Positions 4,686-59,154 of a stretch of 64,000 nt of DNA are shown here, in pieces. Both the position numbers and the translations under genes were made by a program. Each line of letters starts with the position of its first letter. The first letter of the stretch is position 1. The DNA lies in NCBI GenBank assembly GCA_963824995.1, contig CAWGRK010000002.1, positions 1 to 64,000 of the forward strand, read 5' to 3'. A model generated the notes under the pieces. That model had not been told where the DNA came from, made no database searches, and was given only the letters and a program-made list of their open reading frames with translations. This DNA comes from an uncultured Actinomycetes bacterium. Lineage in GTDB: Bacteria; Actinomycetota; Acidimicrobiia; Spongiisociales; DATADW01.

Positions 4686-5753
4686 ATGAGCCCTGAGCAG
4701 CTCACGCAGAGAGCGGTCTTCGAGCGTCTCGCCCCGGGCACCCCGTTGCGCGCCGGTTTGGAGAGGATCATTCAGCAGGGGAACGGGGCTCTGGTGGTCC
4801 TCGGGGGGGGAAGGGCCGTAGACGCCATATGCACCGGTGGCTTCGAGTTGGCCGATTCCAACTTCTCTCCGGCCCGGCTGGCCGAGCTGGCCAAGATGGA
4901 TGGCGCCGTCGTTCTCAACGACGACTGCACGCGCATCATCCGCGCCAATGTCCACCTCGTTCCCTCGTCGTCGATACGCACCGATGAGACCGGTTCACGC
5001 CATCGCACCGCCGAGCGAGTTGCGGTGCAAACCGAGAAGCCGGTGGTTGCGGTGAGCGAGGATCGCAGAGCGGCCACCGTCTTCTTCGGGCAGACGACGC
5101 ACGAGTTGGAGAACCCGACCGAGCTGGTAGCCAAGGCAAATCAGTCGCTGCAGACGTTGGAGCGTTTCCGGCGGCGACTCGATGACGCCTTGGAGAGGCT
5201 GACCCGAATGGAGGTGAGCGACGTGGCGAGCAATCGCGCCGTCGTCACCGTGGTTCAGCGAGCCGAGCTGGTGCGACGGCTCGGCGCCGAGATCGACCGG
5301 GACGCGGTCAACCTTGGCGGGAGCGGAGAGATCATCCGCCTCCAGTTGGCCGACCTCATCCAGGGTGTGGAGACGCAGCAATCCCTGACCTTGCGGGACT
5401 ACGTGAGGCCGAGCCGAATGGCCACGGCTCGCACCGCCCTGGAGACGCTGGGTTCGTTGGCGGTTACCGACCTGAACGACCCGTCCAAGGTCGCCGCCGC
5501 AGTTGGCCTCGACGACCTCGACGACCACGTGCGACCGCTCGGATACCGGTTGCTCGCCACGGTCCCCCGCCTTCCGGAGAACGTCCGCAACGCCTTGACC
5601 GGGCATTTCAAGGACTTTCAGAAGATGCTCCTCGCCGACGTGGCGGAGCTGGACGACGTCGAGGGGATAGGGACGTCGCGGGCGGTCCAACTCCGGCGCT
5701 ACTTCGACCGGCTTCTCGACGCCACCCGGGCGTGGGCCCCCGAGATCGCCTGA
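4686..5753 (+). CDS. disA: DNA integrity scanning diadenylate cyclase DisA
   Basis: DAC motifs KMDGA and GSRHRTA, C-terminal HhH (VEGIG); follows radA. Confidence 0.96.
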   Translation: MSPEQLTQRAVFERLAPGTPLRAGLERIIQQGNGALVVLGGGRAVDAICTGGFELADSNFSPARLAELAKMDGAVVLNDDCTRIIRANVHLVPSSSIRTDETGSRHRTAERVAVQTEKPVVAVSEDRRAATVFFGQTTHELENPTELVAKANQSLQTLERFRRRLDDALERLTRMEVSDVASNRAVVTVVQRAELVRRLGAEIDRDAVNLGGSGEIIRLQLADLIQGVETQQSLTLRDYVRPSRMATARTALETLGSLAVTDLNDPSKVAAAVGLDDLDDHVRPLGYRLLATVPRLPENVRNALTGHFKDFQKMLLADVAELDDVEGIGTSRAVQLRRYFDRLLDATRAWAPEIA

Positions 5754-21112: not shown

Positions 21113-24100
21113 GTGGGAGGCGTCCTCCCCGTAGATCAGGGGGAGAGCGCATCCCTTGGCGGATCCACCGGTCGCTCCGGCCGCCAGCCGGACGGGGATC
21201 AGCCCCACCGGGAGGATGCCCCCAGAGGGCCCCTGCCCGCTGGGTTGATCACATTCGTGATGACCGACATCGAAGGATCGACACGACTCTTCCGACGGCT
21301 CGGTGACTCCTATCTCGACGTCTTGGAAACGCACAGGGCTCTTCTCGGTGGTGCTTTCGCAGCACACGGAGGCGTCGAGGTCGACACCGAGGGAGATGCG
21401 CTCTTCGTGGTGTTCGCCGACGCGTCCGATGCGGTCGCCGGCTGTTTGGAGGGACAAATTGCCCTGGCATCTCATTCCTGGCCGCCCGATGGTGAGGTAC
21501 GGGTCCGGATCGGGCTGCACACCAGCGAAGCCAGACCAGTCGGTCGCCGCTACGTCGATCTCGGGGTCCACCAGGTCGCTCGTATCTGCGCCGGAGCGCA
21601 CGGTGGCCAGGTGGTCATGTCGGAGGAGACGGTCTCGGCACTTGCCGATCGCCTCCCGCCCTCATCGAGTCTCGTTGCGCTGGGCACGTTCCATTTGCGT
21701 GGCTTCTCGGAGCCGGTCCGACTGAGCCAACTTCGCCATCCACAGCTACGCGAGAACTTCCCGCCGTTGCGGGCAATTGGCGTGGTGGTTCATAACTTGC
21801 CGTTTCTCCGGGCGAGCTTCGTCGGCCGAGATGAGGAGATTCCGGCGTTGATAGCGCAGCTACGGACCACCGGCATCCTCACCCTTGTCGGGTTGGGCGG
21901 GGTCGGAAAGACCCGCCTCGCCCTCCAAATTGCACAGAACGTCCTGGGCGATTTCCCCGACGGAGTCTGGCTGGTCGAGTTGGCACCACTGTCGGATCCG
22001 GCATTCGTGCCGCGGGCCGTCGCCGATGCGGCACGTGTCCCCGAAGTGCCCGGACGCGCCATCGAGGAAGTCCTCGTAGAGGCGATGGCGGACAAGTCAT
22101 CCTTGTTGATACTCGACAACTGCGAGCATGTCGTCGAGGCCGTTGCGGTTCTCGCCGAGCGGCTCTCCAGCCATTGCCCGCAACTCGTGATCCTGGCAAC
22201 CAGCAGGGAGCCGCTCGACATCGAGGGTGAGGTGGTGTGGCGAGTCCAGCCGTTGTCCATGCCAGCCGCCCCACATGTCTCGAGCGCCGCTGATGTGGTA
22301 GCGGTGGATTCTGTTCGGCTGTTCGTCGAGCGAGCACAGTTGTCCAGCCCCGGCTTCGAGCTGTCCGACGAGAACGCCGCCGATGTCGCTCGAATCGTGG
22401 GCCACCTCAACGGGATCCCTCTGGCCATCGAGCTTGCGGCATCGACGCTCAGCGACCAGCCGCTATCGGGCATATTGGCCGGGCTCGACGACCGCTTCGC
22501 TCTTCTCACTCGGGGTCGGCGGACCGCACCCGTGCGTCACCAGACGCTTCGGGCCGCGTTGGAGTGGAGCCTCGACCTGCTCGAAGAGCCGGAGCGCCTC
22601 CTTTTCGGCCGGCTGGCGGCGTTCGCCCCGGGTCTGACCACCGCGGCTGTGGTGGGAGTGTGCCGGGGTTTGCCGGGGACCGACAAAGATCTGACGTCCG
22701 GTCTCCACCGCCTGGCCCGTGCGTCGTTGCTGATCCCCCACCCAGATCTTCCCGATCGCTGGTCGATGTTGGAGTCGGTGCGGGAGTTGGCCGCAATCGA
22801 GCTCGAGGCCGCGGGCGAGACCGATGTTCTCTCCAAGCAACATCGCGACTGGTATTTCCTGCACGTCGAGGAGGTCGGGCCATTCCTGGGCCGCACAGGC
22901 CGGGCAGACGTGATGCGGGATCTGGCACTCGATCATGACAACGTGCGGCGCGCCATCGACACCGCCATAACTGACGGCGACGCGGTAGTCGCCCTTCGGT
23001 TGTGTACGGCGATGTCCCCCTTCTGGACGTCACACGGCGATTGGACAGAAGGGTCCGAGCGACTCCGATCCGCCCTGCTCCTTAGGGGCAGCCACGATGA
23101 GCAGTTCAGGGGAAGAGCCGTGGCCGCACTCGGCAACCTGACGCTGTTGCGCGGCGACCTGGCCGCTGCCGAGAAGCTGTTCGAGGAGAGTCGAGAGCGA
23201 ACCGCCGCTTCGGGCGATGAAGTCTTCCTGGCACGATCCCTCGCCGGCGCCGGGTACGTGGCCTTTCGGCGTTCCCAGCTACCGGAGGCTGACTCCCTCT
23301 GGCGGGAGGCGCTCGAGGCGGCCGAGCAGGCGGGCGACGAGCGAGTCGCCGCCGGCGTCCTCCGCAGCCTGGCTATCGCGGCAGCGACCGCCGGCCAGCA
23401 GGGCCGAGCGGGGGAGTTGCTCGATCAGGCAATCGCCTCGGCTCGGCGGGTCGAGGATGACCAGCTCCTCCGATTGCTTCTCGGCTCTTCTGCCGAAAGG
23501 CACATGTGGCTGGGCAGCTACCAGGAGGCTGAGGATGCCTACGGCGACGCCCTCGGGCTTGCCACCGAGATCGGCGATCTCTCGGCAAGGCCACTGTTGC
23601 TGGCCGAGCTGGGGTGGGTGGCACTCCTGCGTGGAGCTGTACCGCGAGCCGAGCGACTCGCTGTCGAGGCAGCCGAATTGGCCGAGGACCTGGGAAATCG
23701 CCGGGTGCTGGCGCACTCGCTGCCGACTGATCGGCGAAGCGCTGATCCGGAAAGGCGAAACAGATGCGCCGAGGAGGTGCTCGAGCGCGCCCTCGCCGTG
23801 GCGCAGGAACTCGACGCGCCGGCAGAGGTGGCCGGGGTGATGTGCACAAGGGCATGCTTGTCCTTGGAGAGGCTTCGATTGGACGAAGCCCGGGAACGGG
23901 CCGAGGGAGGGTTGGCGCTCTCCGCCTTGCCCCATTCGATGCGTCGGGTGTCTCTGAGGTGGGTGCTGGGAGTGGTCGCCCTTCTCGAGGGAGACCCCGA
24001 CGAGTCCGAGACCCTGTTCCGGGCGGACTTGAAGTCGGCCGAGGAAGGGAAGATGCGACGACATGAGGCCACCAGCGCTTGGGGCCTGGCATGTGTCAGC

Positions 24101-24469
24101 TCCGCACGGGGGGACACGCCAAGATCGCTTGCCTTGCACCGACGGGCACTGGCGATCCGCGACGAGATCGAGGATCGGCTTGGTGTGGTCGACTCGTTGG
24201 TGGCGATGGCAGGGGTTGTAGCTCCAAGTCGGCCCAAGGAGGCGGCGTTGCTGACCGGCGCGGCGACCTCGCTCCGTCGGCGGACTGGGTCGGTCGCTAC
24301 TCCCCGCGAAGCCGCCGAGGTCGCTCATGTCGAGTCATCGATCGAGGCCGCACTCGATCGGTCGGCGATGGCGCAAGCTGGAGAGGAGGGTGCACGCATC
24401 GACGAGGAGACCGCAGTGGGATTGGCCCTGGATCTGGCACCGGACGGGAGCGGGCCGGGTTTGCCGTGA
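21113..24469 (+). CDS. Class III cyclase - STAND (NB-ARC-like) ATPase - TPR protein
   Basis: MTDIEGST cyclase, GLGGVGKTRLA, LILDNCEH, TSRE, GIPLAIELAA, RHQTLRAALEWS, TPR repeats; SD GAGGAGG; short compensated frameshift ~23722-23768. Confidence 0.92.
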   Translation: MGGVLPVDQGESASLGGSTGRSGRQPDGDQPHREDAPRGPLPAGLITFVMTDIEGSTRLFRRLGDSYLDVLETHRALLGGAFAAHGGVEVDTEGDALFVVFADASDAVAGCLEGQIALASHSWPPDGEVRVRIGLHTSEARPVGRRYVDLGVHQVARICAGAHGGQVVMSEETVSALADRLPPSSSLVALGTFHLRGFSEPVRLSQLRHPQLRENFPPLRAIGVVVHNLPFLRASFVGRDEEIPALIAQLRTTGILTLVGLGGVGKTRLALQIAQNVLGDFPDGVWLVELAPLSDPAFVPRAVADAARVPEVPGRAIEEVLVEAMADKSSLLILDNCEHVVEAVAVLAERLSSHCPQLVILATSREPLDIEGEVVWRVQPLSMPAAPHVSSAADVVAVDSVRLFVERAQLSSPGFELSDENAADVARIVGHLNGIPLAIELAASTLSDQPLSGILAGLDDRFALLTRGRRTAPVRHQTLRAALEWSLDLLEEPERLLFGRLAAFAPGLTTAAVVGVCRGLPGTDKDLTSGLHRLARASLLIPHPDLPDRWSMLESVRELAAIELEAAGETDVLSKQHRDWYFLHVEEVGPFLGRTGRADVMRDLALDHDNVRRAIDTAITDGDAVVALRLCTAMSPFWTSHGDWTEGSERLRSALLLRGSHDEQFRGRAVAALGNLTLLRGDLAAAEKLFEESRERTAASGDEVFLARSLAGAGYVAFRRSQLPEADSLWREALEAAEQAGDERVAAGVLRSLAIAAATAGQQGRAGELLDQAIASARRVEDDQLLRLLLGSSAERHMWLGSYQEAEDAYGDALGLATEIGDLSARPLLLAELGWVALLRGAVPRAERLAVEAAELAEDLGNRRVLAHSLPTDRRSADPERRNRCAEEVLERALAVAQELDAPAEVAGVMCTRACLSLERLRLDEARERAEGGLALSALPHSMRRVSLRWVLGVVALLEGDPDESETLFRADLKSAEEGKMRRHEATSAWGLACVSSARGDTPRSLALHRRALAIRDEIEDRLGVVDSLVAMAGVVAPSRPKEAALLTGAATSLRRRTGSVATPREAAEVAHVESSIEAALDRSAMAQAGEEGARIDEETAVGLALDLAPDGSGPGLP

Positions 24470-40377: not shown

Positions 40378-40413
40378 GAGCACCAAACTCGTCGGGGACG
40401 CGAGCACCAAACT
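40378..40413 (+). repeat. Two copies of GAGCACCAAACT (40378-40389, 40402-40413); third copy at 43468-43479
   Basis: Exact 12-mers inside both ends of the element. Confidence 0.8.
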
Positions 40414-40692: not shown

Positions 40693-41892
40693 GTGGCCTC
40701 GGATTCCTTCTTCGAAGCCCCCGAAGAGCCGGACCTGCCACAGGACCGTGGATACGGATGGTTGCCGCTTGCAGCCATGGCCGGCGCCGCGCTCGTTGTG
40801 ATCGGAATGATCCTGCTCTGGCCGCGGAGCGACAGGCTTCCCGACCCGACAGGGCTGGGTTTGGCTCAGACCGCAATCCGGGCCGAGGTCACCACCGTGG
40901 AGCCGGGGCCATGTCCGGGGACGCGCCGGGCCGATGACATCGAGTGCACCCTGGTCGGTTTTCGCCTCCTCGAGGGAAGGGACAGCGGCGAGACCGTGGT
41001 TCTCGGCTTCGGGGAAGCCGAATCGACGCCCGAGTTCGCCGAGGGGGACAGGGTGGTGCTCTATGACCAGGGTGGCAACGCCCGACTGGACCGCCGCTAC
41101 CAGTTCGCCGACAGGGAACGCCGCCCCGTCCTCCTCTTCGTCACGTTGGCGTTCGCCTTGGCCGTAGTCGCCCTGGGCCGGTGGCGAGGGTTGGCGTCTC
41201 TCGCCGGATTGGCCATCAGCGTCGTTGTGCTCACCGTTTTCATCATCCCGTCAATCCTCTCGGGTCGCCCGGCAACGTTGGTCGCTGTGGTCGGCGCCGC
41301 CGCCATCGCCTATACGGCCTTGTATCTCTCCCACGGGTTCAACCCGCACACTCATGTCGCCCTGCTCGGCACGCTGGGCGCGCTCGCTCTCACCGTGGCG
41401 TTGTCGGCGCTGGTCACCGCCCTCGCTCAACTGAGCGGATTCGCATCAGAGGAGGCGCTTTTGGTGTCGCAACTCGGTGCGACCGTCGACGTGAGCGGGC
41501 TGATCCTCGCCGGGATCGTGCTCGGGGCGGTGGGCGCTCTCGACGATGTCACCGTCACCCAGACCTCGACCGTGTGGGAGCTTCGGCTTGCCAACCCGGC
41601 GCTGAGCGGCGGCCCTCTGCTTCGGGCGGCTCTTAGGGTTGGGCGCGACCACGTGGTGTCCTCGGTGAACACCCTGCTGCTCGCCTACGCCGGAGCGGCG
41701 ATACCGCTGCTCATCCTTTTCAGCCTGTCTGATCTTGGTCTCGGCACCGTTGCCAACAGCGAGATCGTCGCCACCGAGATCATCCGTACCCTCGTCGGGT
41801 CGATCGGGCTTGTGGCGGCCGTGCCCATCACCACCTGGCTCGCCTCCGAAGTGGCCGGATCGATCCCGCATTCGGAGTTACGAAGGCATTGA
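40693..41892 (+). CDS. YibE/F family membrane protein
   Basis: Y.FADRER, GRWRGL.SL, GALDDVTVTQ, VGRDH..S.VNTLLLAYAG, EIIRTLVGSIGL..AVP.TT; TAACCT 6 nt before GTG. Confidence 0.9.
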   Translation: MASDSFFEAPEEPDLPQDRGYGWLPLAAMAGAALVVIGMILLWPRSDRLPDPTGLGLAQTAIRAEVTTVEPGPCPGTRRADDIECTLVGFRLLEGRDSGETVVLGFGEAESTPEFAEGDRVVLYDQGGNARLDRRYQFADRERRPVLLFVTLAFALAVVALGRWRGLASLAGLAISVVVLTVFIIPSILSGRPATLVAVVGAAAIAYTALYLSHGFNPHTHVALLGTLGALALTVALSALVTALAQLSGFASEEALLVSQLGATVDVSGLILAGIVLGAVGALDDVTVTQTSTVWELRLANPALSGGPLLRAALRVGRDHVVSSVNTLLLAYAGAAIPLLILFSLSDLGLGTVANSEIVATEIIRTLVGSIGLVAAVPITTWLASEVAGSIPHSELRRH

Positions 41893-41979
41893 CCGTACCC
41901 GAGGTGGTACCCGGTTAGGACCTAAAAGCGGTCGACAGCCAACCTCAGCGGGGGCGCTGCAGATGCTGGCGACGACTCG

Positions 41980-42215
41980 CTATCTGCCAGCGCTTGTGAG
42001 AACGGCCGCGACGAAGGCGTCGCGACCGGTCCGCGTGGCGAACCCCAAACGACGACGGCCGCCGAATGGGTCGACCTGGAGCGCCGCCCATGGATCGGGC
42101 GCCTCCACGACGAGCTCTGCCACCTCGGCCGCGGGGGCCCCTCGTCGACGTGGTGGGACAAGTCCGCGTCGAAGCCGAAGCTGCCAACCACATGGCACGG
42201 ACGCCCGGAGCTCAC
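41980..42215 (-). CDS. Small hypothetical protein (~78 aa), one frameshift ~42138
   Basis: GTG overlaps the cyclase TGA; ...HHVDEG joins PAAEVAELVVEAPDPW...VLTSAGR if one base is restored in the G/C run. Confidence 0.5.
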
Positions 42216-43030
42216 AGCCGTAGCGGAGGGAACCTCATCGGTAGGCCCTTGCTGGCGATCTGAAATAGCGCCACCTCTGCGTGCAGCCCTTTCAGGCGGT
42301 GCGACCCGAGGTCGACGAAGCGCACGCCCGCCGCTGACGTTGCCCTGACCGCCTCCCTAGTGTTGGCCGTCACCACGATCTGGCCGCCGTGCCCGGCGGC
42401 GCACACCCGTGACGCGGTGTTGACGTCGATGCCGACATAGTTCCCAGGGGTGGGCGTCGGGTACCCACTGTGGATACCGATGCGGACGCGCACGGAGACG
42501 TTGTCGACCCACGCCTGCGCAGCCAGCGCCAGCTGCATGGCGATCGCCGCGTCCACGGCGGCGCGTGGCGCCTCGAACGCAGCGAAGAACTCGTCGGCGC
42601 GGGCCTCTACGACGCAGCCACCAGCATTGTCGACCGCGCCGCGGAGTACAGCGACGACGTCATCGATCAGGGTGCCGAAGCGGCCGCCGAGTTGGTTGAC
42701 CAGGCTCGTCGAGCCTTCGACGTCGGTCATGAGCAGCGTGACGAACCCGGCCGGAACGCTGACCGGACCGTCCCGGCGGCTTGCCGCCTCTAGCTGACTG
42801 GTGATGAAACCGACGGGCACGATGCGGAACCGCCTGGCCGCTCGGAGCAGCCGGCTGCGTGCCCGGTCACGGGCCGCTTCGTCCTCGAAGTCGACCTGGT
42901 TGAAGCGGGCGAGAGCGTTGCGGACGTGCGCGGCGTCATGGATCGGCAGCCGCCTCATGCCGCGTGAGTCGATGTAGGCAAATGCGCGGTCGGGGAGGGC
43001 GGCGCGTTCTCGGGCGCTGAGGGTCGCCAT
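42212..43030 (-). CDS. DUF6582-like domain fused to class III nucleotidyl cyclase
   Basis: LSARERAALPDRAFAY...RLPIHDAAHVRNALARFNQV + MTDVEGST, ADEF, RIGIHSG, VNTASRV, GHGGQ; TACCGT 6 nt before ATG. Confidence 0.88.
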   Translation of the reverse strand: MATLSARERAALPDRAFAYIDSRGMRRLPIHDAAHVRNALARFNQVDFEDEAARDRARSRLLRAARRFRIVPVGFITSQLEAASRRDGPVSVPAGFVTLLMTDVEGSTSLVNQLGGRFGTLIDDVVAVLRGAVDNAGGCVVEARADEFFAAFEAPRAAVDAAIAMQLALAAQAWVDNVSVRVRIGIHSGYPTPTPGNYVGIDVNTASRVCAAGHGGQIVVTANTREAVRATSAAGVRFVDLGSHRLKGLHAEVALFQIASKGLPMRFPPLRL

Positions 43031-43555
43031 GTCGAGACGGTACCAACAGAATGTCGGACCGAACGGCGAGACATGACGGCCACGGGCATCCCACAGTGCC
43101 GATTCCACCGGCACCCACGCTCGTGTCCGCGTTGGGAATCACCTCTATTCGTCAAGCGAAAACTGCAGCCGAGTCACGCCTGCGGAGGCGCTCACGCCGG
43201 CCACGGGACTCCGCCATCGACCCCCACCCCGCGACCCCGGGGGTGCGACCGACGGTTGGACTCCAGGACCAGACCACGGTCGGCCGTGGATGACGCCCGT
43301 CAATGCGATCGACTGACACCGGAGGTCTTTCGAGCTCGTGAGGTGGGCCGTTTCACGGAACGCCCGGGAGAGGTGGTCCCAGATCACCCACGGAGGGACC
43401 GGTTTCACCCCTCAAGGACGGGGAATTCCGTCGATGCTGCTCCGACTTCCGGGGGAGTGGAACCTTCGAGCACCAAACTGGACGCTGTACGGACGGGCGG
43501 TCGTCGGGGCCTACCTGGCAGAACGCGATCGAGCACAGCGGTAAGCCTCAACGAG

Positions 43556-43672: not shown

Positions 43673-44740
43673 TCATCCGGCGGCGACGGTGATGCTCCCC
43701 GAACTGGTGCGGACCACGATGCTGCTGTCAGCCGCGGGATCTTGGTCAACCCCACGACCTCCTCGTCTCCCGAGGAGGAGTCGAGGTCGATCGCGTAGGC
43801 CCCCTCGGGTACCACGAGGTGGGCGTCACCCGATCCGATGGACACCTCCACCCAGGTTCGGCGCATCTGTAGATGCGAGGATCACGCTGCCCGAACTGGT
43901 GCTGGCGGTGAGCGCCGAGGTGGACAGGCTCTCCGACCTGATGTCACCCGAGCCGGTCTCCAGGGAGGTTTCGCCGACGACGCCCTCCACCTCGATCGAG
44001 CCGGAGCTGGCAATGGCGGTGAGGGCCGAGGCGGTGAGGTCCAGAGCTCGGATGTCGCCCGAGCCAGTCTCCAACGATGCCTCGCCGGCATCGCCGTAGA
44101 TCTCGATCGAACCGGAACTGGTGGTGGCGGTGAGTGCGGGCACGTCGAAGTCGCGACCTCGGATGTCTCCCGAGCCGGTCTCCAGCGAGGTCTCACCCGA
44201 GACGCTCTCGACCGCGATCGAACCGGAGCTGGTGGCGAGGTTGACGCCCCCGATCAAGCCCCGTGCGTTCAAGTCACCGGAGCCCGAGTCGACGATCAAC
44301 TCGACCGACGCGGGGGCAGTGACCTGGTAGTCGACACTGCACGACGAGAAGAACAATTCGTTTGGGCAAAGGACCTCGATGTGGAGCACCCCGTTCACCA
44401 CCTCCTCCGTCACGCTCGGTCGGTTGGCGCGGAAACGGCTGACCCGCTCCAGGTGAACATCCTCTTCCCCTGCGGCAACCTCAATCGATCCCGAATCGGA
44501 GGTCACCTCGATTCGCTGGATTGGCTCGGTGAACGCGGCAGTCGTGGTCTCGATGGTCTCGGGCTCGATCCACCGGCTCCATGCCCAGAAGCCGGCGCCG
44601 ATCAGCGCTGCGGCCGCCACGAGGGCGAGGATCGGCATCAGCAGCCCGGCCAGTGCGACGCTGACCGAAGGTGGTCGCGTGTCACTGGGTGGAGAGACTT
44701 CGGTCGAGGGGACTGGGGGGATGCGGACGTCGTTTGACAT
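43673..44740 (-). CDS. DUF4097 beta-strand-repeat (adhesin-like) membrane protein; frameshifts ~43853 and ~43742
   Basis: TM anchor, repeated SSGSI/TGSGDI motifs, 37-aa (111-bp) repeats; C-terminus continues in other frames to TGA 43673. Confidence 0.82.
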
Positions 44741-44741
44741 G

Positions 44742-45386
44742 TCAGGACTCCAGGTATCGAAGGACGGCGAGCACCCGGCGATGGTCGCCGGGGGTGGGCG
44801 GCAGGTCGAGCTTGGTGAGGATGTTGCCGATGTGCTTCTCGACGGCACCGGCACTGACGGTGAGCGCCTCGGCGATCGCGTTGTTGGAGCATCCCTCGGC
44901 CATCAACGAGAGCACTGTCCGTTCCCGGTCGGTGAGACGGTCGAGAGGGTCTCGGCGGCGACTGCGCACCAGGAGTTGGGAAACCACCTCGGGGTCGAGG
45001 ACGGTGCCGCCGGCGGCGACTCGACGGGCCGACTCGACGAATTCGGAGACGTCGGCCACTCGATCCTTGAGGAGATATCCCACACCTCCGGGATGGTCGG
45101 CGAGGAGTTCCGAGGCGTACTCCTCCTCGACGTATTGGCTGAGGACCAGCACGGCCGTGTCGGGATGGCGTTGTCGAAGTTCGAGGGCAGCGCGGATCCC
45201 CTCGTCGCGGTAGGTCGGGGGCATCCGGACGTCGACAATTGCCAAGTCGGGTCGTTCCCTTGCCACCGCTTCGATCAGATGATCGCCATCTCCCGCTTCG
45301 GCGACCACCTCTTCGCCGGCATCGCTGAGCAACCTGACCAAGCCGGCGCGCAGCAGCACCGAGTCCTCGGCGATGGCGATCCGCAC
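44742..45386 (-). CDS. NarL/LuxR family response regulator
   Basis: IAEDSVLLRAG, VDVRMPP, LSQYVE, YLLKDRV, HTH LTDRE..VL.LMAEG. Confidence 0.93.
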   Translation of the reverse strand: MRIAIAEDSVLLRAGLVRLLSDAGEEVVAEAGDGDHLIEAVARERPDLAIVDVRMPPTYRDEGIRAALELRQRHPDTAVLVLSQYVEEEYASELLADHPGGVGYLLKDRVADVSEFVESARRVAAGGTVLDPEVVSQLLVRSRRRDPLDRLTDRERTVLSLMAEGCSNNAIAEALTVSAGAVEKHIGNILTKLDLPPTPGDHRRVLAVLRYLES

Positions 45387-45387
45387 C

Positions 45388-46696
45388 TCATTCCCCTTCT
45401 GGACCGCAGGGAATCTCGGCGCGGAGCACGGTGGGTCCGCCCGGTGGGCTCTCGATCTGGAATCTCCCGTCGACCGCGGCAACTCTGTCCGCCAGGCCGG
45501 CGAGGCCGGTGCCCAACGCCGCATCGGCGCCACCCCGTCCATTGTCGCTGACCTCGATCTCGAGAACATCGCCGCGCACAACCGTCCGAACAGAAGCTCC
45601 GGTTGCCCCGGAATGACGGGCGACATTGGCGAGTGCCTCGCATACCAGGTAGTAGGCAATGCCCTCGACCCCGGGGTCGAGCCGATGCGGCAAGTTGACC
45701 TCGAGCGCCACGGGAATTGTCGAGCGAGCCGCAACCGAAGAAAGTGCAGCGCCCAGCCCCCGGTCGGACAAGATCGCCGGGCTGATCCCCCGCACGATGT
45801 TGCGCAGCGTGGCGAGGGCTTGCTTCGCCTCCTGGTGGCCTTCGTCAACGAGGGCTCGTGCGGCCTCGGGGTCTGTGGCGAACTTCTCCTTGGCCATGCC
45901 GAGCGTCATCGCCAAGGACACCAACTGCTGGCCGGCGCCATCGTGGAGGTCACGTTCGATACGGCGACGCTCCTGTTCGGTGGCGTCGACCATGCGTGAC
46001 CGGCTCGAGGCGAGCTCGGAAACGCGCCTCCCGAGGCGGTCCCCCTCCGTGGGGCCGAGCATCGCGTGAGCGACGGCGATATCGAGGCGGGCAAGGGCAC
46101 CGATCATCCAGGGAAGCCAGGCGAGCGCGGCAAGGCCGACGAGAGGCGAGGCAATCGCGAGCATCAGGAACCCGGGTGCAGTGAGGTCGGCGCCGAGTTG
46201 AGCCATCAGAAATGGGGTTGCGAGCAGGGAAAGCGGAATGCTCCATGCGAGCAGGGCGAGAGGTGAAGGTGAAGATCCCAAGCGGGAGAAGCAGCTGAAG
46301 GTAGGCGAACTCCCTCCACGTGACCGGATCCGACATCGAGGACCAAAACCGGTGGTGCCACGATCCGCCACCGCGTCGGCGTGGCGGAAGAGGGATGTCC
46401 GAACGGAGCAGGACGCCGACGCGGGCGCGATCGAACGCCGCCATACCACGCACCACCCAGAGCCATGAGAACAGCACCAGGAGGCCGATCGGGTACACGA
46501 TCAGGAGGGGGATTCCCAAGAGGAGCAGGGTCAGGCTGAGCACAAACCCCACGATCCCCATGGGAAGATCGAGGAGGAGGTGCGCGGTGGACCCGAACAG
46601 TCGTCGGAACGAATCGCCGATGTGCCTCCAGTTCCAAGCCGAAGAGGCAGCCGGACCCGATGTAGTTACGGGCGTGGAAGGGGGCGCACTGGACAC
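45388..46696 (-). CDS. Membrane sensor histidine kinase (HisKA_3); frameshift ~46260
   Basis: TM sensor region, ERRRIERDLHDGA, EALANVARHS, DNGRGG, GTGLAGL. Confidence 0.9.
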
Positions 46697-46903
46697 GATG
46701 GCACGGTACGTCAGGCGTTGTCTCGGCACAATGAAGCCTCCCGGTGTCTCGGGAGTGGGGATCGCCCTACCCCGCGACCCCTGGCCGGGCGAAGTCCGCA
46801 GCAACCCCCTCGGGGACCACCTCGTGACTTGGAAGGACTGACAGCAGGGCCGCGTTGTCGGCGCGTGGCGCCACTAGACGTCTGTGGTGTCGGGCGCCTG
46901 CGT

Positions 46904-48763: not shown

Positions 48764-50076
48764 CTAGACGCCCCTGGGCTGCTCCCAACCGCCGGTGATT
48801 TCGAGGGCATGCGCCGCGGCTATCGCTACGTGGTCCCTCCATGGCCGGGCAGCGATCTGGACGCCGATGGGTAGACCGTTGGGATCGCGACCGTAGGGGA
48901 CGACTACCGCCGGCTGGCCGGTCAGGCTGAAGGCCAGGGTGTAGGTGTATGGGACTTCCTCTCCGAGCCCGACGGCAGGGCCGTCAGCGGCCGGCAAGAG
49001 CAGGAGGTCGAAGTCGGTCATGAATCGGGCGATGTCGCGACGGAAGCGCCCCCATCGGAAACGGAACTCCTGAATGTCGTTCGCCGAGAGAGAGCTTTCG
49101 GTGTTTGGCTGCCAAGCATCGAGGTCATCCGATTCGGGGAGCGACCAGTAGATCCGCGTGAGCGGCCACACTTCGTCGAGTCCCTCGGGACGAGTCTCGA
49201 TCACGTCGGCCCCGGCCCCCTCGAGTGCCGCCGCTGCCCGCTTCACTGTTTCCTTCGTCTGGGGTGTCGGTCGCCCCTCCGACTGATCTGTCCACCATGC
49301 GATCCGCAGTCTGCTCACGTCCACATCGCGCCATTCCTCAAACGCCGACCGGCGCCACACTCGGGTCGATTCCGTCCTCCCCCGACGATGACCCCGAGCG
49401 CCAGCGCCAGGTCCTCGACGGTGCGGGCGATGGGACCGATGACAGTCCGTGGGTCGAGCATTGGCTCGATCACCGGGAAGTGCCCGGTCAGTGGGACGAG
49501 CCCAGTGGTCGGTTTGATCGTGGCCACCCCACAGAGGTGCGCCGGCTGGCGGAGACTTCCACCCGAGTCCGAGCCGAGGCCGAGAGCGGATCCCCCGGCG
49601 GCGATAATGGCTGCCTCCCCACTCGAACTACCGCCCGGGGACCTGGTCAGGTCGTGGGGATTGAATGTGGGCCCGTATACCTCGTTGTCGGCCATGACGT
49701 TTGTCTTGCCGAGGACGATGGCGCCGGCCGAGCGGAGGCGGGAGACGACGGAGGCGTCCTCGCTCGGAATGCGATCACGGAACTCCGGGTCGCCACCGGT
49801 GCAGGGGAGGCCGGCGACATCGATCCAGTCCTTGATCGTCACCGGCACCCCATGGAGAGGGCCGAGCGCTGCCCCTTTTGCTCTCAGGGAGTCCGCGTCG
49901 CGGGCGGAGGCGAGGGCGGCGTCGACATCCAGGGCCACCACGGCGTTCAGCATCGGGTTGACCTCGGCAATCCGATCCAGGTGTGCACCGACTACGTCGA
50001 GCGCAGAGATCTGACCCGACCGCATCAGGTGCGCCAGTTCGTGAGCTGGCAGAAATTCGATCGGAGCACCATCCAT
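48764..50076 (-). CDS. Amidase signature family enzyme; frameshift ~49360
   Basis: GPLHGVPVTIKD, GKTN, PGGSSSGE, GSDSGGSLR, GLPIGVQI. Confidence 0.9.
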
Positions 50077-54939: not shown

Positions 54940-57900
54940 TCAGGCGGAGGCGGGGTCCGGCTCGGCGTTTACGGTGTTGCGCTTCGCAAGAACCTTCTCG
55001 CCGCGCTCCTCAGCTCGCTTGACGTAGGCCGTCGCGCCCTTTGCCTGGAACAACGTGATCGCTTCGTGGATCGAGCTGATGGCTTCATGCCAGCGGGCGG
55101 CCACCTCGTGGACCTCGGCGAGGCTCAGGAGCGCCCCTCCATGGAACACGGGATCGCCGGCCGCCCCTGCCCGAGCCACGGCATCCGTGGCCAGCCATAG
55201 GGCCGCTCGCGGATCTTGCGTGGCGACGGCACGGGCGCGGGCGCTCCGCCAGAGGACCTGAGAAATGTAGTCGTCCTCGGCAGAAATACGCTCCGCCTGC
55301 TCCGTCAGCGTTAGCGCCTCGTCCATCACACCGCGATCGCAGAGCACATGCGCCAGGAAGCCGGCCGTAGTCGAGCCCAACCGCCGTTCGTCCGCTTCCA
55401 TGAGGGTCTCGTAATCGGCGCGCAACTCAGCCTCGGCCACCTCCAGGTTGCCAGCCAGGCGTTCCATCGGCCCCGATGCATGAGAGGTCGAGGCCGCCTC
55501 GAAGACATGGCCCAGATCGAGCGCGATCGAGCGCGAAAGAGCCGCGGCCTCTCGTGCCTCATCGAAGCGCCCAGTCATTCCATACAGCTCGACAAGGTTG
55601 AACAACATGAAGGACCGCGAGATAGGGCTGCCCTCGACCTCAGGCAGGAGTGGCTCGATGGCCTCGATCACCTCTGCTGCAGGCAGGGGTCCACTTGCCC
55701 ACAGCTGAGCCCGAAAAGCGAGGCTCGCCGCCACCACATGGCGATCCTGGCTGAGCCTGGCCTGGACGACGGACAATTCAGCGAACCGAAGCGCCTCATC
55801 AAGGCGGCTGCCATCGAAGTGCGTGACGGCGATGAGTCGGTGGGCCTTGGCTGCCTCTCGATGCAGTCCGACGGTCTCCAGGACAGCGGCCGCAGCCGCC
55901 ACGGCGGCACTGTCGTCCCGGGACACACCACTCGGATCCAAGTTGAAGCTGGCGCTCGTGAGGGCGACCGTGGCAACTGCCTCGATGATGTCGTTCCCGG
56001 CGTTGGAAGCCCAGCCAAGCGCCTCTTCGATGTAGGGCTGCCCGTCTGCGAGGTGGCCGGCGCGGCCGATGGCCTCCCCGAGCGCGATCAGAGTCTCAGC
56101 CCTGCCGGCGCTCGGCTCTGTTCCGAGCGCCAACGCACGCTCCAGGAGCATGATCGCCGCGGCGGATCCATTGATGTCGAGCGCGCGGCGACCGGCTGAG
56201 GCGAGCCGCTCGGCGGCACGCTCCGCCAGCGCTGCGCTGGCGGAGTCCGGCAGCCCGAGCTCGGCGCGGTAGCTGTATGCCTGTTCGAGGTGGTAGCCGA
56301 TGATCTCTTCGTACTCCTCCAGCCTGTCGCCGCTGACGCGCTCCAGCCAGTCGCCGAAGCGTGCGTGCAACTCGGCGCGCTCGGCCTTGGGCAAGGCGTC
56401 ATAGGCGGCATCACGGATGAGCAGGTGCCGGAATTGGTAGGCATCACCGGCGGACAGCAGCGACCGATCGGGGCGGATCAGGTCCTTGCGCACAAGCGCA
56501 AGCAGGTCGCGTGCCAGCGCGTTGCGCTGGCCGGCCGGCACCAGTTCGGCCAGCGCCGCCTGCTCGAACGACTTGCCCATAACGCTCGCCCGCTCTGCCA
56601 GGCTGCGCTCACCGGGAGGCAGTTGGTCGAGCCGTGCGGCCAGCAGGGCCGAGATGCTGGGTGGCACATCCACCGCGGCCAGCGCGCTGCTCGTGTGCCA
56701 GGCTCCATCGTCGGCGAGGGCCAGGTGGCTCTCGTCGACCAACATGCCAAGCATCTCCTCCACGAACAGGGGATTGCCCTCGGCGGCGTCAAGGATGCGG
56801 GCCTGCAGCGGCTCGGGCAGGACACTGCCTCCCGGTAGGTGCTCGATCAGCTGGGCCGCCGACTCGGTTGCCAGCGGCTCGAGCCTCAGGCTGGTGGCCT
56901 GGGGTAGTCCGCTGCCCCAGCCTGGTCGTCGGTCGAGCAGGTCGGGCCGCGCCGGACATACGAGTAGGAGGGGGGCGTCAAAGGTCAGGCTGACGATGTA
57001 CTCGAGCAGGTCGAGGAAGGCCTCGTCGGCCCACTGTATGTCGTCGAACTCAATCACCAGGGGGCGTCGGCGTGCCTGCGTCTCGAGCAGCTGGCGGGTC
57101 GCCCAGGAGATCTCCTCGGCAGGTGCCGAGCCAGTGGCCAGTCCGATCGCCAAGCCGATCCGCTCCGCCACTAGCTCGACGTCCGCGACACCGGCCGACA
57201 CGAAGCGCAGCTTCGCCATGGCCGCATCGCGGTCGTCGGCCTCGTCGATGGCCGCAGCCATGCGCACCACCTCGGCCAGCGGCCAATAGGTGATCCCCTC
57301 ACCATATGGCAGGCAGCGACCCGACAGCACGGTGGCGCGATCCGCCACCAAACCGCCGAACTCGGCCAGCAGCCGGCTCTTACCGACACCGGCCGCGCCG
57401 AGAAGGGTTACCAACCTGCAACGTCGCTCGGCCAGCGCCGCGGCGAAGGCTTGCTGGAGAACGGCCAGCTCTGACTCGCGCCCGACTAGCGGCGCGTCCA
57501 GGCGACGAGCATGGCCCGCCGCGCCGGGGATGACGGACAGGAGCCGGTAGGCGTGTACGGGCCGCTCCTTGCCCTTTAGCGCCAGCGGCGCCAAGGGTTC
57601 CACCGATACCGCATCGCGCACCAGTTGATGGGTGGTCGGCCCGATGACGATCTCGCCTGGGGCGGCGGTCTGCTCCAGGCGTGCGGCGGTGTTGACCGCG
57701 TCGCCGGTGATCAGTGTCTGACCGTCGGTCGGGTCGCCGGCTATCACCTCCCCGGTGTTGACTCCGGTTCGGAAGCGGATGGCTATGCCACGTTCTGCGT
57801 CGAGCTCGACATTCAGAAGCATCAGGCGCTCGCGGATCTCGGTGGCCGCCCGCACCGCGCGAAGCGCGTCATCCTCGTGCAGCTGAGGAATGCCGAAGAC

Positions 57901-58173
57901 CGCCATAACCGCATCGCCGATGAACTTCTCGACCGTCCCGCCGTGACGCTCGATAATCGTTCGCATCTCGGCGAAGTAGCGGCCCATCAGCGTGCGCATC
58001 GATTCTGCGTCGAGCTGCTCACCCAGACTCGTGGAGCCTGATACATCGGCGAACAGGATGGTCACCGTCCGACGCAATCCGCGCGGCTTCAGCACGATCG
58101 GTGCAGCGCACTCGGCGCAGAACTTCGCACTGTCGGAGTTCTCCGTGCCGCAGGAGGTACACACCACGGCCAT
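54940..58173 (-). CDS. Zinc ribbon - class III adenylate cyclase - AAA/STAND ATPase - TPR protein
   Basis: CTSC/CAEC, FADVSGST, EKFIGDAVMAVFG, GDAVNTAARL, GAAGVGKSRL, DDIQWAD, GNPLF; TACACT 6 nt before ATG. Confidence 0.93.
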   Translation of the reverse strand: MAVVCTSCGTENSDSAKFCAECAAPIVLKPRGLRRTVTILFADVSGSTSLGEQLDAESMRTLMGRYFAEMRTIIERHGGTVEKFIGDAVMAVFGIPQLHEDDALRAVRAATEIRERLMLLNVELDAERGIAIRFRTGVNTGEVIAGDPTDGQTLITGDAVNTAARLEQTAAPGEIVIGPTTHQLVRDAVSVEPLAPLALKGKERPVHAYRLLSVIPGAAGHARRLDAPLVGRESELAVLQQAFAAALAERRCRLVTLLGAAGVGKSRLLAEFGGLVADRATVLSGRCLPYGEGITYWPLAEVVRMAAAIDEADDRDAAMAKLRFVSAGVADVELVAERIGLAIGLATGSAPAEEISWATRQLLETQARRRPLVIEFDDIQWADEAFLDLLEYIVSLTFDAPLLLVCPARPDLLDRRPGWGSGLPQATSLRLEPLATESAAQLIEHLPGGSVLPEPLQARILDAAEGNPLFVEEMLGMLVDESHLALADDGAWHTSSALAAVDVPPSISALLAARLDQLPPGERSLAERASVMGKSFEQAALAELVPAGQRNALARDLLALVRKDLIRPDRSLLSAGDAYQFRHLLIRDAAYDALPKAERAELHARFGDWLERVSGDRLEEYEEIIGYHLEQAYSYRAELGLPDSASAALAERAAERLASAGRRALDINGSAAAIMLLERALALGTEPSAGRAETLIALGEAIGRAGHLADGQPYIEEALGWASNAGNDIIEAVATVALTSASFNLDPSGVSRDDSAAVAAAAAVLETVGLHREAAKAHRLIAVTHFDGSRLDEALRFAELSVVQARLSQDRHVVAASLAFRAQLWASGPLPAAEVIEAIEPLLPEVEGSPISRSFMLFNLVELYGMTGRFDEAREAAALSRSIALDLGHVFEAASTSHASGPMERLAGNLEVAEAELRADYETLMEADERRLGSTTAGFLAHVLCDRGVMDEALTLTEQAERISAEDDYISQVLWRSARARAVATQDPRAALWLATDAVARAGAAGDPVFHGGALLSLAEVHEVAARWHEAISSIHEAITLFQAKGATAYVKRAEERGEKVLAKRNTVNAEPDPASA

Positions 58174-58296
58174 GCGGCGAGTGTACGACCGGTCCGCCTG
58201 GGATCGGCCGTACAGCAGTCGGCGGCCAATAGCCGAAGTTGGTGAAGAGGGTGGGCCTTCAATCTTCGACGTTCTCTGCGCCACTAGCTTTTGCCC

Positions 58297-59154
58297 ATGT
58301 CCATGCGACCCGCCCCGCGTTGGGCGGTGGCGTTGCTGATCGTTGCTGTCGTCGCATTGGCGGGACTGATAGGGATCGGCGCCCGGCAACTCCCCGGCGG
58401 TGAGGTGCGGCCGCCTCCTTTCGTGTTCCAGGTGGATCCCGCCACGGTGGTCACTTGGGTCTTCCTGGTCCTGGTCGTGGCGGGCGCCGTGCTGCTGCTC
58501 TATGTGGTGCTCACCGCCGCCCGCCGACCCGGCGGGGGGTCACGTCGCCGGCGGACGTCTCCAATAGCCATCGTGGCCGCTCTGATCGTGATCGCCGCCC
58601 TGATCCTCTACGGGCCGATGGACCGCATCAGAGAAGTGCTCAGCGGAATCATCCCGACCGGGGCGGATGCCGTCGCCTCGGGTGGTGGGGCGGTGACGCC
58701 TGTGGGTATGCCTGGGCCTACCGGGTCGCCGTGGTGGGTGGCTGTGCTCGTGGTTGCGGTGGCACTGGTGGTCGTGGCATTAGCTGCCATGTGGCGGCGG
58801 GCGGCAGTCATCGAGGATCGCGGGGAAGTCGCCAGCGACGATGTCGTCGAGGATGCCGCTAGGGAGGCGCTGGCCGAATTGCGGCTGGGTGACGACCCGC
58901 GCTCGGCCGTGCTGCGCGCCTATGCCGCCATGGAGCAAGCACTCGCCGAAGCAGGGTGGGAGCGCCGGACTTGGGAGGCGCCCGGCGAATATCTAGCCCG
59001 GGTCGCACCCCGGATCGGTTCGGACAGCACCGCCGGGCTGACGCTGACCCGGGTGTTCGAGGTGGCTCGATTCGGGCAACGTGCCATGTCCGAGGCCGAT
59101 CGCGCCGCGGCCGAAGAAGCACTCATCGAGGTACGCGCCCGGGTGACCCAATGA
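58297..59154 (+). CDS. DUF4129 domain membrane protein
   Basis: TM helices + DPRSAVLRAYAAME...EAP.EY..R...LT.VFE.ARF. Confidence 0.85.
   Translation: MSMRPAPRWAVALLIVAVVALAGLIGIGARQLPGGEVRPPPFVFQVDPATVVTWVFLVLVVAGAVLLLYVVLTAARRPGGGSRRRRTSPIAIVAALIVIAALILYGPMDRIREVLSGIIPTGADAVASGGGAVTPVGMPGPTGSPWWVAVLVVAVALVVVALAAMWRRAAVIEDRGEVASDDVVEDAAREALAELRLGDDPRSAVLRAYAAMEQALAEAGWERRTWEAPGEYLARVAPRIGSDSTAGLTLTRVFEVARFGQRAMSEADRAAAEEALIEVRARVTQ

Follow-up and report, generated by a model that had tools for sequence, protein, structure and literature searches.

Introduction

In class III nucleotidyl cyclases the adenylate cyclases read adenine with a Lys and an Asp or Thr, and the guanylate cyclases use a Glu and a Cys or Ser instead, the second position being the less conserved of the two (PMC7384201, in the part of the article available). 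Ma1120, a small adenylyl cyclase of Mycobacterium avium (PDB 4WP3, 4WP9, 5D15), is the closest relative of known structure to the protein described here. According to the accessible part of PMC4215837, its exchange K101E alone lowers ATP turnover approximately 20-fold and raises guanylate cyclase activity approximately 4-fold at pH 7.5; the mutant retains approximately 40% of adenylate cyclase activity at pH 9 and still favours ATP by kcat/Km (0.82 for ATP vs. 0.05 for GTP, x10^6; Table 3 of that article). The same source describes Ma1120 as lacking the canonical transition-state Asn, yet active. Here we analyze a stretch of 64,000 nucleotides from an uncultured Actinomycetes bacterium of the class Acidimicrobiia (GenBank assembly GCA_963824995.1, contig CAWGRK010000002.1, positions 1 to 64,000 of the forward strand), hereafter the window. 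Its minus strand carries a gene for a 272-aa protein in which a DUF6582 domain (PF20223) is followed directly by a class III cyclase domain.

An earlier note on this DNA, made from the sequence alone, had read the gene as half of a two-gene cyclic-nucleotide module carried as island cargo. We consider it probable that the gene instead encodes a stand-alone, soluble and regulated class III nucleotidyl cyclase belonging to a family of Acidimicrobiia, whose adenine-reading Lys has given way to an acidic residue throughout the family. In the following we describe the gene and its relatives, weigh what its product may be, and compare it with known systems.

The cyclase gene and its family

The reading frame translates to MATLSARERAALPDRAFAY...FPPLRL. 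In a Pfam scan the cyclase domain (Guanylate_cyc, PF00211) reaches 47.4 bits (cut-off 21.9), and DUF6582, on residues 14-69, a marginal 28.9 bits (cut-off 27.3). The same scan gives no further domain, and NCBIfam gives sub-threshold cyclase matches and nothing else. Translation and Pfam thus bear out the fusion of DUF6582 to a class III cyclase ending in FPPLRL, which the earlier note describes as having no transmembrane, STAND or helix-turn-helix domain. G+C content (GC) by codon position is 0.72/0.52/0.84. A 300-aa reading from GTG 43114 was rejected, since 26 aligned homologs all start at the position of ATG 43030; the 84-nt extension has no codon periodicity (GC 0.68/0.57/0.64), and the related locus L002 carries a frame-breaking indel within it.

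The protein has numerous relatives. A whole-protein search of 5.8 billion proteins scored 8000 candidates, 7865 of them at E <= 0.001, and the best 120 of these cover 99–100% of the query at 65–100% identity, mostly with a length of approximately 270 aa. Those of the 120 that have names are annotated as "class 3 adenylate cyclase" or "adenylate/guanylate cyclase domain-containing protein" of Ilumatobacteraceae. Species-level genomes (one per species) were also scanned for ARADEFFA or [KR]IVP[VI]GFI[AT], and 344 of the 530 stretches found were confirmed as relatives, mostly from Acidimicrobiia. The best 80 of the 344 (L001-L080) are called the related loci below, and all counts out of 80 or 81 rest on them. 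A hand count of titles gave 36 with the label Ilumatobacteraceae or Ilumatobacter and 24 with other Acidimicrobiia labels (60 of 80 together, with Acidimicrobiales and Acidimicrobiaceae among the names used); eight carry general actinobacterial labels, and 12 have other labels or none.

The DUF6582-cyclase architecture is therefore common and already present, unnamed, in the databases; the cyclase class is a known one, and precomputed Pfam annotations already show the fusion. From these comparisons it represents a large and strongly conserved family of Acidimicrobiia. Some members depart from the usual layout: P0178 (367 aa), P0211, P0206, and P0186 have an insert of about 100 aa between DUF6582 and the cyclase, or a C-terminal extension.

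Catalytic residues and the probable product

A profile of 26 family members searched against the PDB matched Ma1120 best (E 2.4e-28, residues 87-261), followed by trypanosomal and mycobacterial cyclases, while guanylate cyclases matched weakly (E 5e-5 to 9e-4). The Ma1120 residue names of PMC4215837 (in its accessible part) were read onto the profile alignment (Table 1), and residues were counted over 200 family sequences, namely the window protein, the 80 loci and 119 database matches. Each of D103, R144, A145, D146, and R208 is found in all 200. Position 142 is Glu in 190 and Asp in 10, with Lys in none; Asn197 is retained in 192; position 204 is Asn in 129, including the window protein, and His in 71. 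The window protein thus has the PF00211 match, the two metal Asp (D103, D146) and the transition-state Asn and Arg (N204, R208), as the earlier note had reported for the last two pairs. Its observation that the usual KxxGD reads EARAD also holds, and E/D142-x-R-A-D extends across the 200 sequences. EARAD is thus a family signature and not a local oddity, because Glu or Asp142, R144, A145, and D146 are kept throughout.

In the alignment to Ma1120 the Lys plus Asp/Thr pair that reads adenine is not present and Glu142/Asn197 stands in its place. Of the guanine-reading pair the Glu is there (or, in the remaining sequences, Asp), and at the second position stands Asn, a residue not described there for guanylate cyclases. 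The protein is best read as an enzyme predicted to be catalytically competent, its first determinant resembling that of guanylate cyclases and its second being undescribed. As E142 occupies the guanylate-cyclase signature position, the enzyme probably prefers GTP or takes both purines; such a GTP preference or dual specificity is our best guess and not a result. Its output would probably be cGMP or a mixture of cGMP and cAMP rather than cAMP alone, and the non-cAMP product raised in the earlier note is plausible because Glu occupies the Lys position.

Several points weigh against this reading. What the enzyme makes, that it dimerizes and that it is regulated are predicted rather than observed. 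The second base-reading residue is Asn, where known guanylate cyclases have Cys, Ser or Gly. The His in place of the canonical transition-state Asn in 71 of the 200 sequences means that the geometry may differ from the textbook one. The DUF6582 score barely exceeds the Pfam cut-off, and a full-length AlphaFold2 model made with 26 close homologs is too poor for use (mean pLDDT 52.5), so that the contact between the N-terminal module and the cyclase has no usable model. The role of that module as an input domain, discussed below, comes solely from architectural analogy. Non-canonical pairs can still yield mainly cAMP, as in Mycobacterium tuberculosis Rv0386 (Gln/Asn) and Rv1900c (Asn/Asp). Finally, the part of PMC4215837 available concludes that every cyclase needs study on its own merit.

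A rival which we regard as possible though doubtful is an ordinary cAMP-making adenylate cyclase in which Glu/Asn is a tolerated non-canonical variant. The public name "class 3 adenylate cyclase" of its relatives would fit, as would the adenylyl cyclase activity of the closest solved relative, the persistence of that activity and of an ATP-favouring kcat/Km in Ma1120 K101E (PMC4215837, in part), and the Asn at the second determinant. On the other side, none of the 200 sequences has Lys at position 142, Glu at that position is the guanylate-cyclase signature (PMC7384201, in part), and a second cyclase of the same window, at 54940-58389, keeps KxxGD. Very improbable, in our view, is a catalytically dead cyclase-like domain that would do no more than bind nucleotide or act as a scaffold: neither the usual Lys nor the Gly of the GD motif is present and the transition-state Asn is often His, but both metal Asp and the Arg are invariant, and Ma1120 works without the canonical Asn.

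Further enzymes of nucleotide signalling are encoded in the window. In a STAND-type cyclase at 21113-24469 (+), with AAA_16/NB-ARC and TPR domains, the catalytic domain has 37% identity to that of the DUF6582 cyclase. Features in common with the family are the acidic Lys position (here Asp), His where Asn is canonical, and RxPxLR at the C-terminus. A second STAND-type cyclase, at 54940-58389 (-) and with AAA_16/NB-ARC, has the canonical KxxGD, so the genome is not generally relaxed at the Lys position. A DisA-type diadenylate cyclase gene at 4686-5753 (+) adjoins radA, from which c-di-AMP signalling may be expected in this organism as well.

The N-terminal module

The N-terminal module is conserved more strongly than the cyclase domain: compared with the window protein, family members have a median identity of 75% in the module and 65% in the cyclase domain, and the mean column entropies are 0.73 and 1.06 bits. 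An AlphaFold2 model of residues 1-90 made from 150 sequences (mean pLDDT 81.6, pTM 0.67) predicts a beta hairpin (17-20, 26-29) and three helices (33-45, 51-67, 73-84). A two-copy complex prediction of the same residues scored 0.05 against a mark of 0.42, a value that, having no controls beside it, decides nothing on dimerization. Compared with the PDB, the module model gave no Foldseek match at E <= 0.001 (best E 2.6) and its sequence no phmmer match at E <= 10, and an NCBIfam scan found nothing. Across Pfam, NCBIfam, PDB sequences and PDB folds no known sensor family was matched, in line with the earlier note, where DUF6582 is called uncharacterised. DUF6582 or PF20223 is mentioned in no paper of the literature searched, a body that excluded approximately 1.7 million PMC articles and the subscription journals.

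Similar domains are seen in phages. PHROG 16160 matches residues 1-46 (E 9e-10), and the ESM Atlas neighbours of the module are small PF20223 proteins from bacteria and phages, with scores of 0.82–0.83 that are to be taken as leads only. Among the predicted viral structures of BFVD no Foldseek match reached E <= 0.001; the first ten range from E 3.8e-3 to 0.17 with probabilities of 0.98–1.00 and TM scores of 0.51–0.72, and in most of these ten the match takes up little of a larger phage protein (target TM 0.07–0.27), the targets including a prohead protease, an SNF2-type ATPase and one small phage protein of 109 aa. A tblastn search of 50,697 phage records gave one weak and uninformative match (E 1e-3) in a Salmonella phage, straddling the end of an annotated hypothetical coding sequence into unannotated sequence near the lysis genes.

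An exhaustive HMMER search with residues 1-85 returned 1092 cluster representatives at E <= 0.001, the best 150 of which are mostly fragments of the DUF6582-cyclase fusion. A Pfam scan was then made of 20 selected proteins, 19 of them HMMER matches and one, P0010, a match of the whole-protein search. In P0219 the domain stands before a Mu-like prophage protease, its motif being present twice by eye. In P0155 it stands before a SpoIIE/PP2C phosphatase with the linker IVPIGF..QL kept, and this latter architecture recurs in 27 clusters of 322–344 aa, 26 of which list both Pfam families. Of 93 further rows listed with them, 87 are GAF-SpoIIE proteins. Since the module sits in the GAF slot of these PP2C relatives and also precedes a cyclase, it may most simply be read as an input domain. 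The sensor role proposed for DUF6582 in the earlier note thus gains indirect, analogical support from the PP2C fusions, whose nearest relatives have GAF in that place.

A predicted leaderless promoter

A leaderless mRNA is strongly supported by comparison of the start regions. The 6-nt CTCGAC separates TACCGT (43042-43037) from the ATG at 43030, so that the window promoter TGGTACCGT with its 6-nt spacing fits the leaderless actinobacterial -10 criterion (TANNNT approximately 6–7 nt 5' of the start, without a Shine-Dalgarno sequence). The comparison covered 80 sources, that is 79 loci and the window, L044 being cut off and therefore excluded. TANNNT occurs 4–9 nt 5' of the start in 71 of the 80, against a background of 234 in 25,382 ATG/GTG triplets of the loci (0.9%) by the same test, and a Shine-Dalgarno-like motif occurs in eight. 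The 71 also tend towards an extended -10 (TGn) form, 57 of them having G at -2 and 44 having T at -3. These counts bear out the suggestion in the earlier note that the gene is leaderless (TACCGT, 6 nt, ATG), and the extended -10 box is conserved in the family at a distance of 6–7 nt from the start codon.

A sigma-70 consensus scan of 41800-43500 gave no promoter-like site, because the scan demands a -35 box. A GGAAC-type extracytoplasmic function (ECF) -35 box 5' of the -10 element was considered and dropped, as it is present in 13 of the 71 sources. In many Ilumatobacteraceae relatives (L003-L045 and others) a C-rich box, ACACCCC(C/G)TTGG, lies approximately 20 nt 5' of the start and directly before the -10 element, and the window carries GACATTCTGTTGG where the relatives have this box; it could be a regulator site.

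Flanking genes and the tRNA-Arg bracket

The second gene of the module proposed in the earlier note was a small open reading frame (ORF) coupled to the cyclase. Its GTG (42215-42213) does overlap the TGA stop (42214-42212) as described, the overlap being a by-product of the last cyclase codon and the stop (CTG TGA). It is 97 aa long rather than approximately 78, running to 41922, and the end given at 41980 belongs to a 72-aa ORF in a different frame. No family was found for the 97-aa ORF in Pfam, NCBIfam, PHROGs or PADLOC, and against the 5.8 billion proteins six word-sharing candidates came up, none at E <= 0.01. By tblastn it is present at none of the 80 related loci. The locus L001 (95% DNA identity) aligns with the window from 43148 down to 42203 and L002 (92%) from 43455 down to 42202, homology in both ending approximately 10 nt past the cyclase stop. 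Of the 81 sources, 46 have an ORF of at least 40 aa that starts near the cyclase stop, which is what a GC of 65% would lead one to expect, and among these ORFs there are 10 similar pairs, none with the window.

That the cyclase is translationally coupled to a small partner protein can hardly be credited on this evidence. The GTG/TGA overlap, a GC of 0.80 at third codon positions in the 97-aa frame, and the position of the sole minus-strand terminator-like hairpin (41944-41930) after the small ORF would suit such a pair; against it stand the absence of the ORF from the related loci and from the protein search, the abrupt end of homology, the dissimilar near-stop ORFs, and the composition of the frame, which is Ser/Pro/Arg-rich with an atypical 0.66 GC at second positions and an opposite strand open in the same phase. 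The test of conservation on which the coupled module depended thus failed, and we judge the 97-aa ORF to be neither a partner gene nor part of the system. L001 (1412-1480) and L002 (4978-5050) have in common approximately 70 nt downstream of the stop that the window does not have, and the downstream spacer of the window would therefore be the odd one out.

Neighbours were surveyed with a crude gene caller in 69 of 81 sources, 12 without a called cyclase being dropped. Across the 69 no conserved neighbour gene was found; the commonest neighbour cluster, an MFS transporter mostly on the opposite strand, occurs in 16, and in L001, L002, L003, L004, L013, and L024 the neighbours are ordinary metabolic and regulatory genes. 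The cyclase thus appears to be a stand-alone gene without a partner. This bears also on an anti-phage role, in the form of a Pycsar-type cyclase on a defence island making a pyrimidine cyclic nucleotide, which we find most unlikely. A weak PADLOC match to PycC (14 bits, E 0.006), the occurrence of DUF6582 in phage proteins and the tRNA repeats around the locus could be cited for it. A PycC match together with an adjacent effector, the mark of Pycsar, is not what the locus presents: there is no effector gene or conserved neighbour, five neighbouring ORFs tested had no PADLOC match, the 63 window ORFs scanned included no gene for mobility or defence, and the family is highly conserved among ordinary genes, unlike patchy defence genes. 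The speculation on phage defence in the earlier note comes down to the 14-bit match, with no conserved effector gene nearby.

The notion of island cargo fared better in part. An intact tRNA-Arg gene and an exact copy of its nucleotides 1-38, in the same orientation and 3,284 nt upstream on the tRNA strand, bracket a 3.28-kb segment that contains the YibE/F gene, a 319-bp spacer, the cyclase and approximately 520 nt upstream of it; the identity stops just past the anticodon loop. In the accessible part of PMC4383910, the Islander signature is an intact tDNA with an end fragment in the same orientation, a 5' fragment lying upstream, over 2–200 kb, the 5'-fragment type being rare (159 of 3919 islands). 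Here the tDNA and its fragment are present and the tyrosine integrase is not: Pfam found no integrase domain in the ORFs scanned between 40310 and 43866, and no integrase, transposase, phage or other mobility gene in the 63 window ORFs scanned. GC over the cyclase is slightly raised (0.70 vs. approximately 0.65). AGTTTGGTGCTC occurs in three exact copies, each near one tRNA copy, and with up to one mismatch matches six times in the window, against 0.10 expected from shuffles; these may have served to bind the recombinase of an element now decayed. The 300–400 nt on the upstream side of the cyclase promoter, 43145-43455 (-), form a block common to L002 (92%) and not to L001; it includes an 87-aa ORF without a family and ends 13 nt before the AGTTTGGTGCTC copy at 43468-43479.

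From this pattern we conclude that the cyclase of the window probably lies in a decayed insertion at tRNA-Arg. No tRNA-Arg was found in the 60 related loci scanned, the tRNA-Arg half is absent from all 81 loci, and the YibE/F gene is at none of the 80 related loci by tblastn and so is not associated with the cyclase elsewhere. The word cargo fits the window locus alone, and the family behaves like a conserved chromosomal gene in varied contexts.

Table 1. Features of the cyclase locus in the window and residues of its product aligned with Ma1120.
Feature	Position	Strand	Basis or remark
DUF6582-class III cyclase gene, 272 aa + stop (42212-42214)	42212..43030	-	translation, Pfam, homologs, codon GC
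N-terminal module, residues 1-84 (DUF6582 core 14-69 = nt 42824-42991; linker IVPVGFI, then helix)	42779..43030	-	Pfam, PHROG, AlphaFold2
Class III nucleotidyl cyclase catalytic domain, residues 95-257	42260..42748	-	PF00211, Ma1120 alignment
Key catalytic-domain residues	D103, E142, R144, D146, N197, N204, R208
Metal Asp of Ma1120	D103, D146		metal binding
Ma1120 K101	E142		first base-reading position
Ma1120 D157	N197		second base-reading position
Ma1120 A164	N204		canonical Asn position
Ma1120 A167	S207		Tyr in Cya2
Ma1120 R168	R208		transition-state Arg
Extended -10 element TGG TACCGT, 6 nt 5' of ATG	43037..43045	-	sequence, comparison of 80 sources
97-aa ORF, GTG over cyclase stop; judged no conserved gene	41922..42215	-	no family, 0/80 loci
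YibE/F-family membrane protein gene, convergent with cyclase	40693..41892	+	PF07907, 231.7 bits
Intact tRNA-Arg (CCT), one end of 3.28-kb segment	40234..40309	-	ARAGORN; Rfam 66.6 bits
Exact copy of tRNA-Arg nucleotides 1-38, other end of segment	43556..43593	-	repeat search, blastn 38/38
AGTTTGGTGCTC motif, three exact copies	43468-43479, 40378-40389, 40402-40413	-	each near one tRNA copy

The rest of the window is ordinary chromosome (RadA, DisA, CarD, CysS, transporters, two-component systems). A histidine kinase at 45388-46804 (-) is split over two overlapping ORFs, with the Sensor domain and HisKA_3 plus HATPase in different frames, and an amidase at 48764-50076 (-) is likewise split (profile positions 1-213 and 331-442). 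Either both are pseudogenes with frameshifts, or the assembly has indels there. Inside a DUF4097 "toastrack" gene at 43826-44854 (-) lie three tandem 111-nt repeats that are 70–72% identical (43889-44221).

A model of the enzyme and its meaning

In the model that we favour, the protein would be translated from a leaderless mRNA and would form a head-to-tail homodimer, by analogy with Ma1120 and other bacterial class III cyclases, with two active sites at the dimer interface. D103 and D146 would hold two metal ions, and N204 and R208 would stabilize the transition state. Of the catalytic positions only the adenine-reading Lys-Asp pair is exchanged, throughout the family, for Glu/Asp142 and Asn197, and GTP or both purines would be the substrate. 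An invariant polar cluster of the N-terminal module (D21, R26, D32, H35, R37, R42) may bind a ligand or partner, and the linker helix may relay this signal to the catalytic dimer. The 3.28-kb segment would be what is left of an element that entered tRNA-Arg, and would characterize this locus and not the family.

What is new is, as far as these comparisons indicate, the family-wide acidic residue at the Lys position in an Arg-Ala-Asp context, the predicted conserved leaderless promoter, and the conservation of the N-terminal module together with its second use, before PP2C phosphatases where others have GAF. The rejection of the small ORF as a partner is new as well, and the coupled-ORF and defence-island readings should not be carried forward. 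A more speculative extension, which we offer tentatively and consider rather unlikely as a whole, is that DUF6582 and the IVPxGF linker form a portable sensory module, set on cyclase and PP2C outputs and carried by phages, and that the Acidimicrobiia family makes cGMP or another non-cAMP nucleotide. If this were true, there would be a widespread and unrecognized signalling pathway in an abundant class of soil and water actinobacteria, and phages might use their copies of the module to intercept or imitate that signal.

To our knowledge, bacterial cGMP signalling is known from few cases. A family found in hundreds of Acidimicrobiia species and never with the adenine-reading Lys would be a cheap and direct place to look for cGMP signalling, and the occurrence of DUF6582 in the GAF slot of PP2C proteins, before a cyclase and in phage proteins gives a first testable idea of its role.

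Comparison with known systems

With Ma1120 the protein shares the catalytic fold by sequence and the aligned metal Asp and Arg. Both proteins are small and soluble, and a homodimeric mechanism is expected here by analogy. The two differ at the base-reading positions (Lys101/Asp157 there, Glu142/Asn197 here) and at the residue before the metal Asp, which is Gly-Asp in Ma1120 and Ala-Asp after an invariant Arg here; moreover Ma1120 has neither the canonical Asn nor a DUF6582 module, whereas the window protein has N204 and DUF6582. The class III guanylate cyclases, such as Synechocystis Cya2, rhodopsin-guanylate cyclase and soluble guanylate cyclase, have the same Glu at the purine-reading position, but their second determinant is Cys, Ser or Gly and not Asn, and their input domain is unrelated.

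The segment around the gene resembles the tDNA islands of Islander in its intact tDNA, its upstream fragment in the same orientation, its crossover at the anticodon loop and its length, which exceeds 2 kb; it differs in having no integrase, in its size of 3.28 kb with two unrelated genes, and in being of the rare 5'-fragment type. The phage DUF6582 proteins (PHROG 16160, small phage ORFs and the N-termini of a prohead protease and other large phage proteins) share with the module the motif FAYID..G.R.LPIHD..HV, as in P0219, the PHROG 16160 match and the fold matches in BFVD; there the domain stands alone, is duplicated or is joined to a Mu-like protease. In the DUF6582-SpoIIE/PP2C proteins (P0155 and 26 further clusters) the module (69% identical in P0155), the IVPxGF-QL linker and the order of module before output are the same as in the window protein, and the output is a PP2C phosphatase there and a cyclase here.

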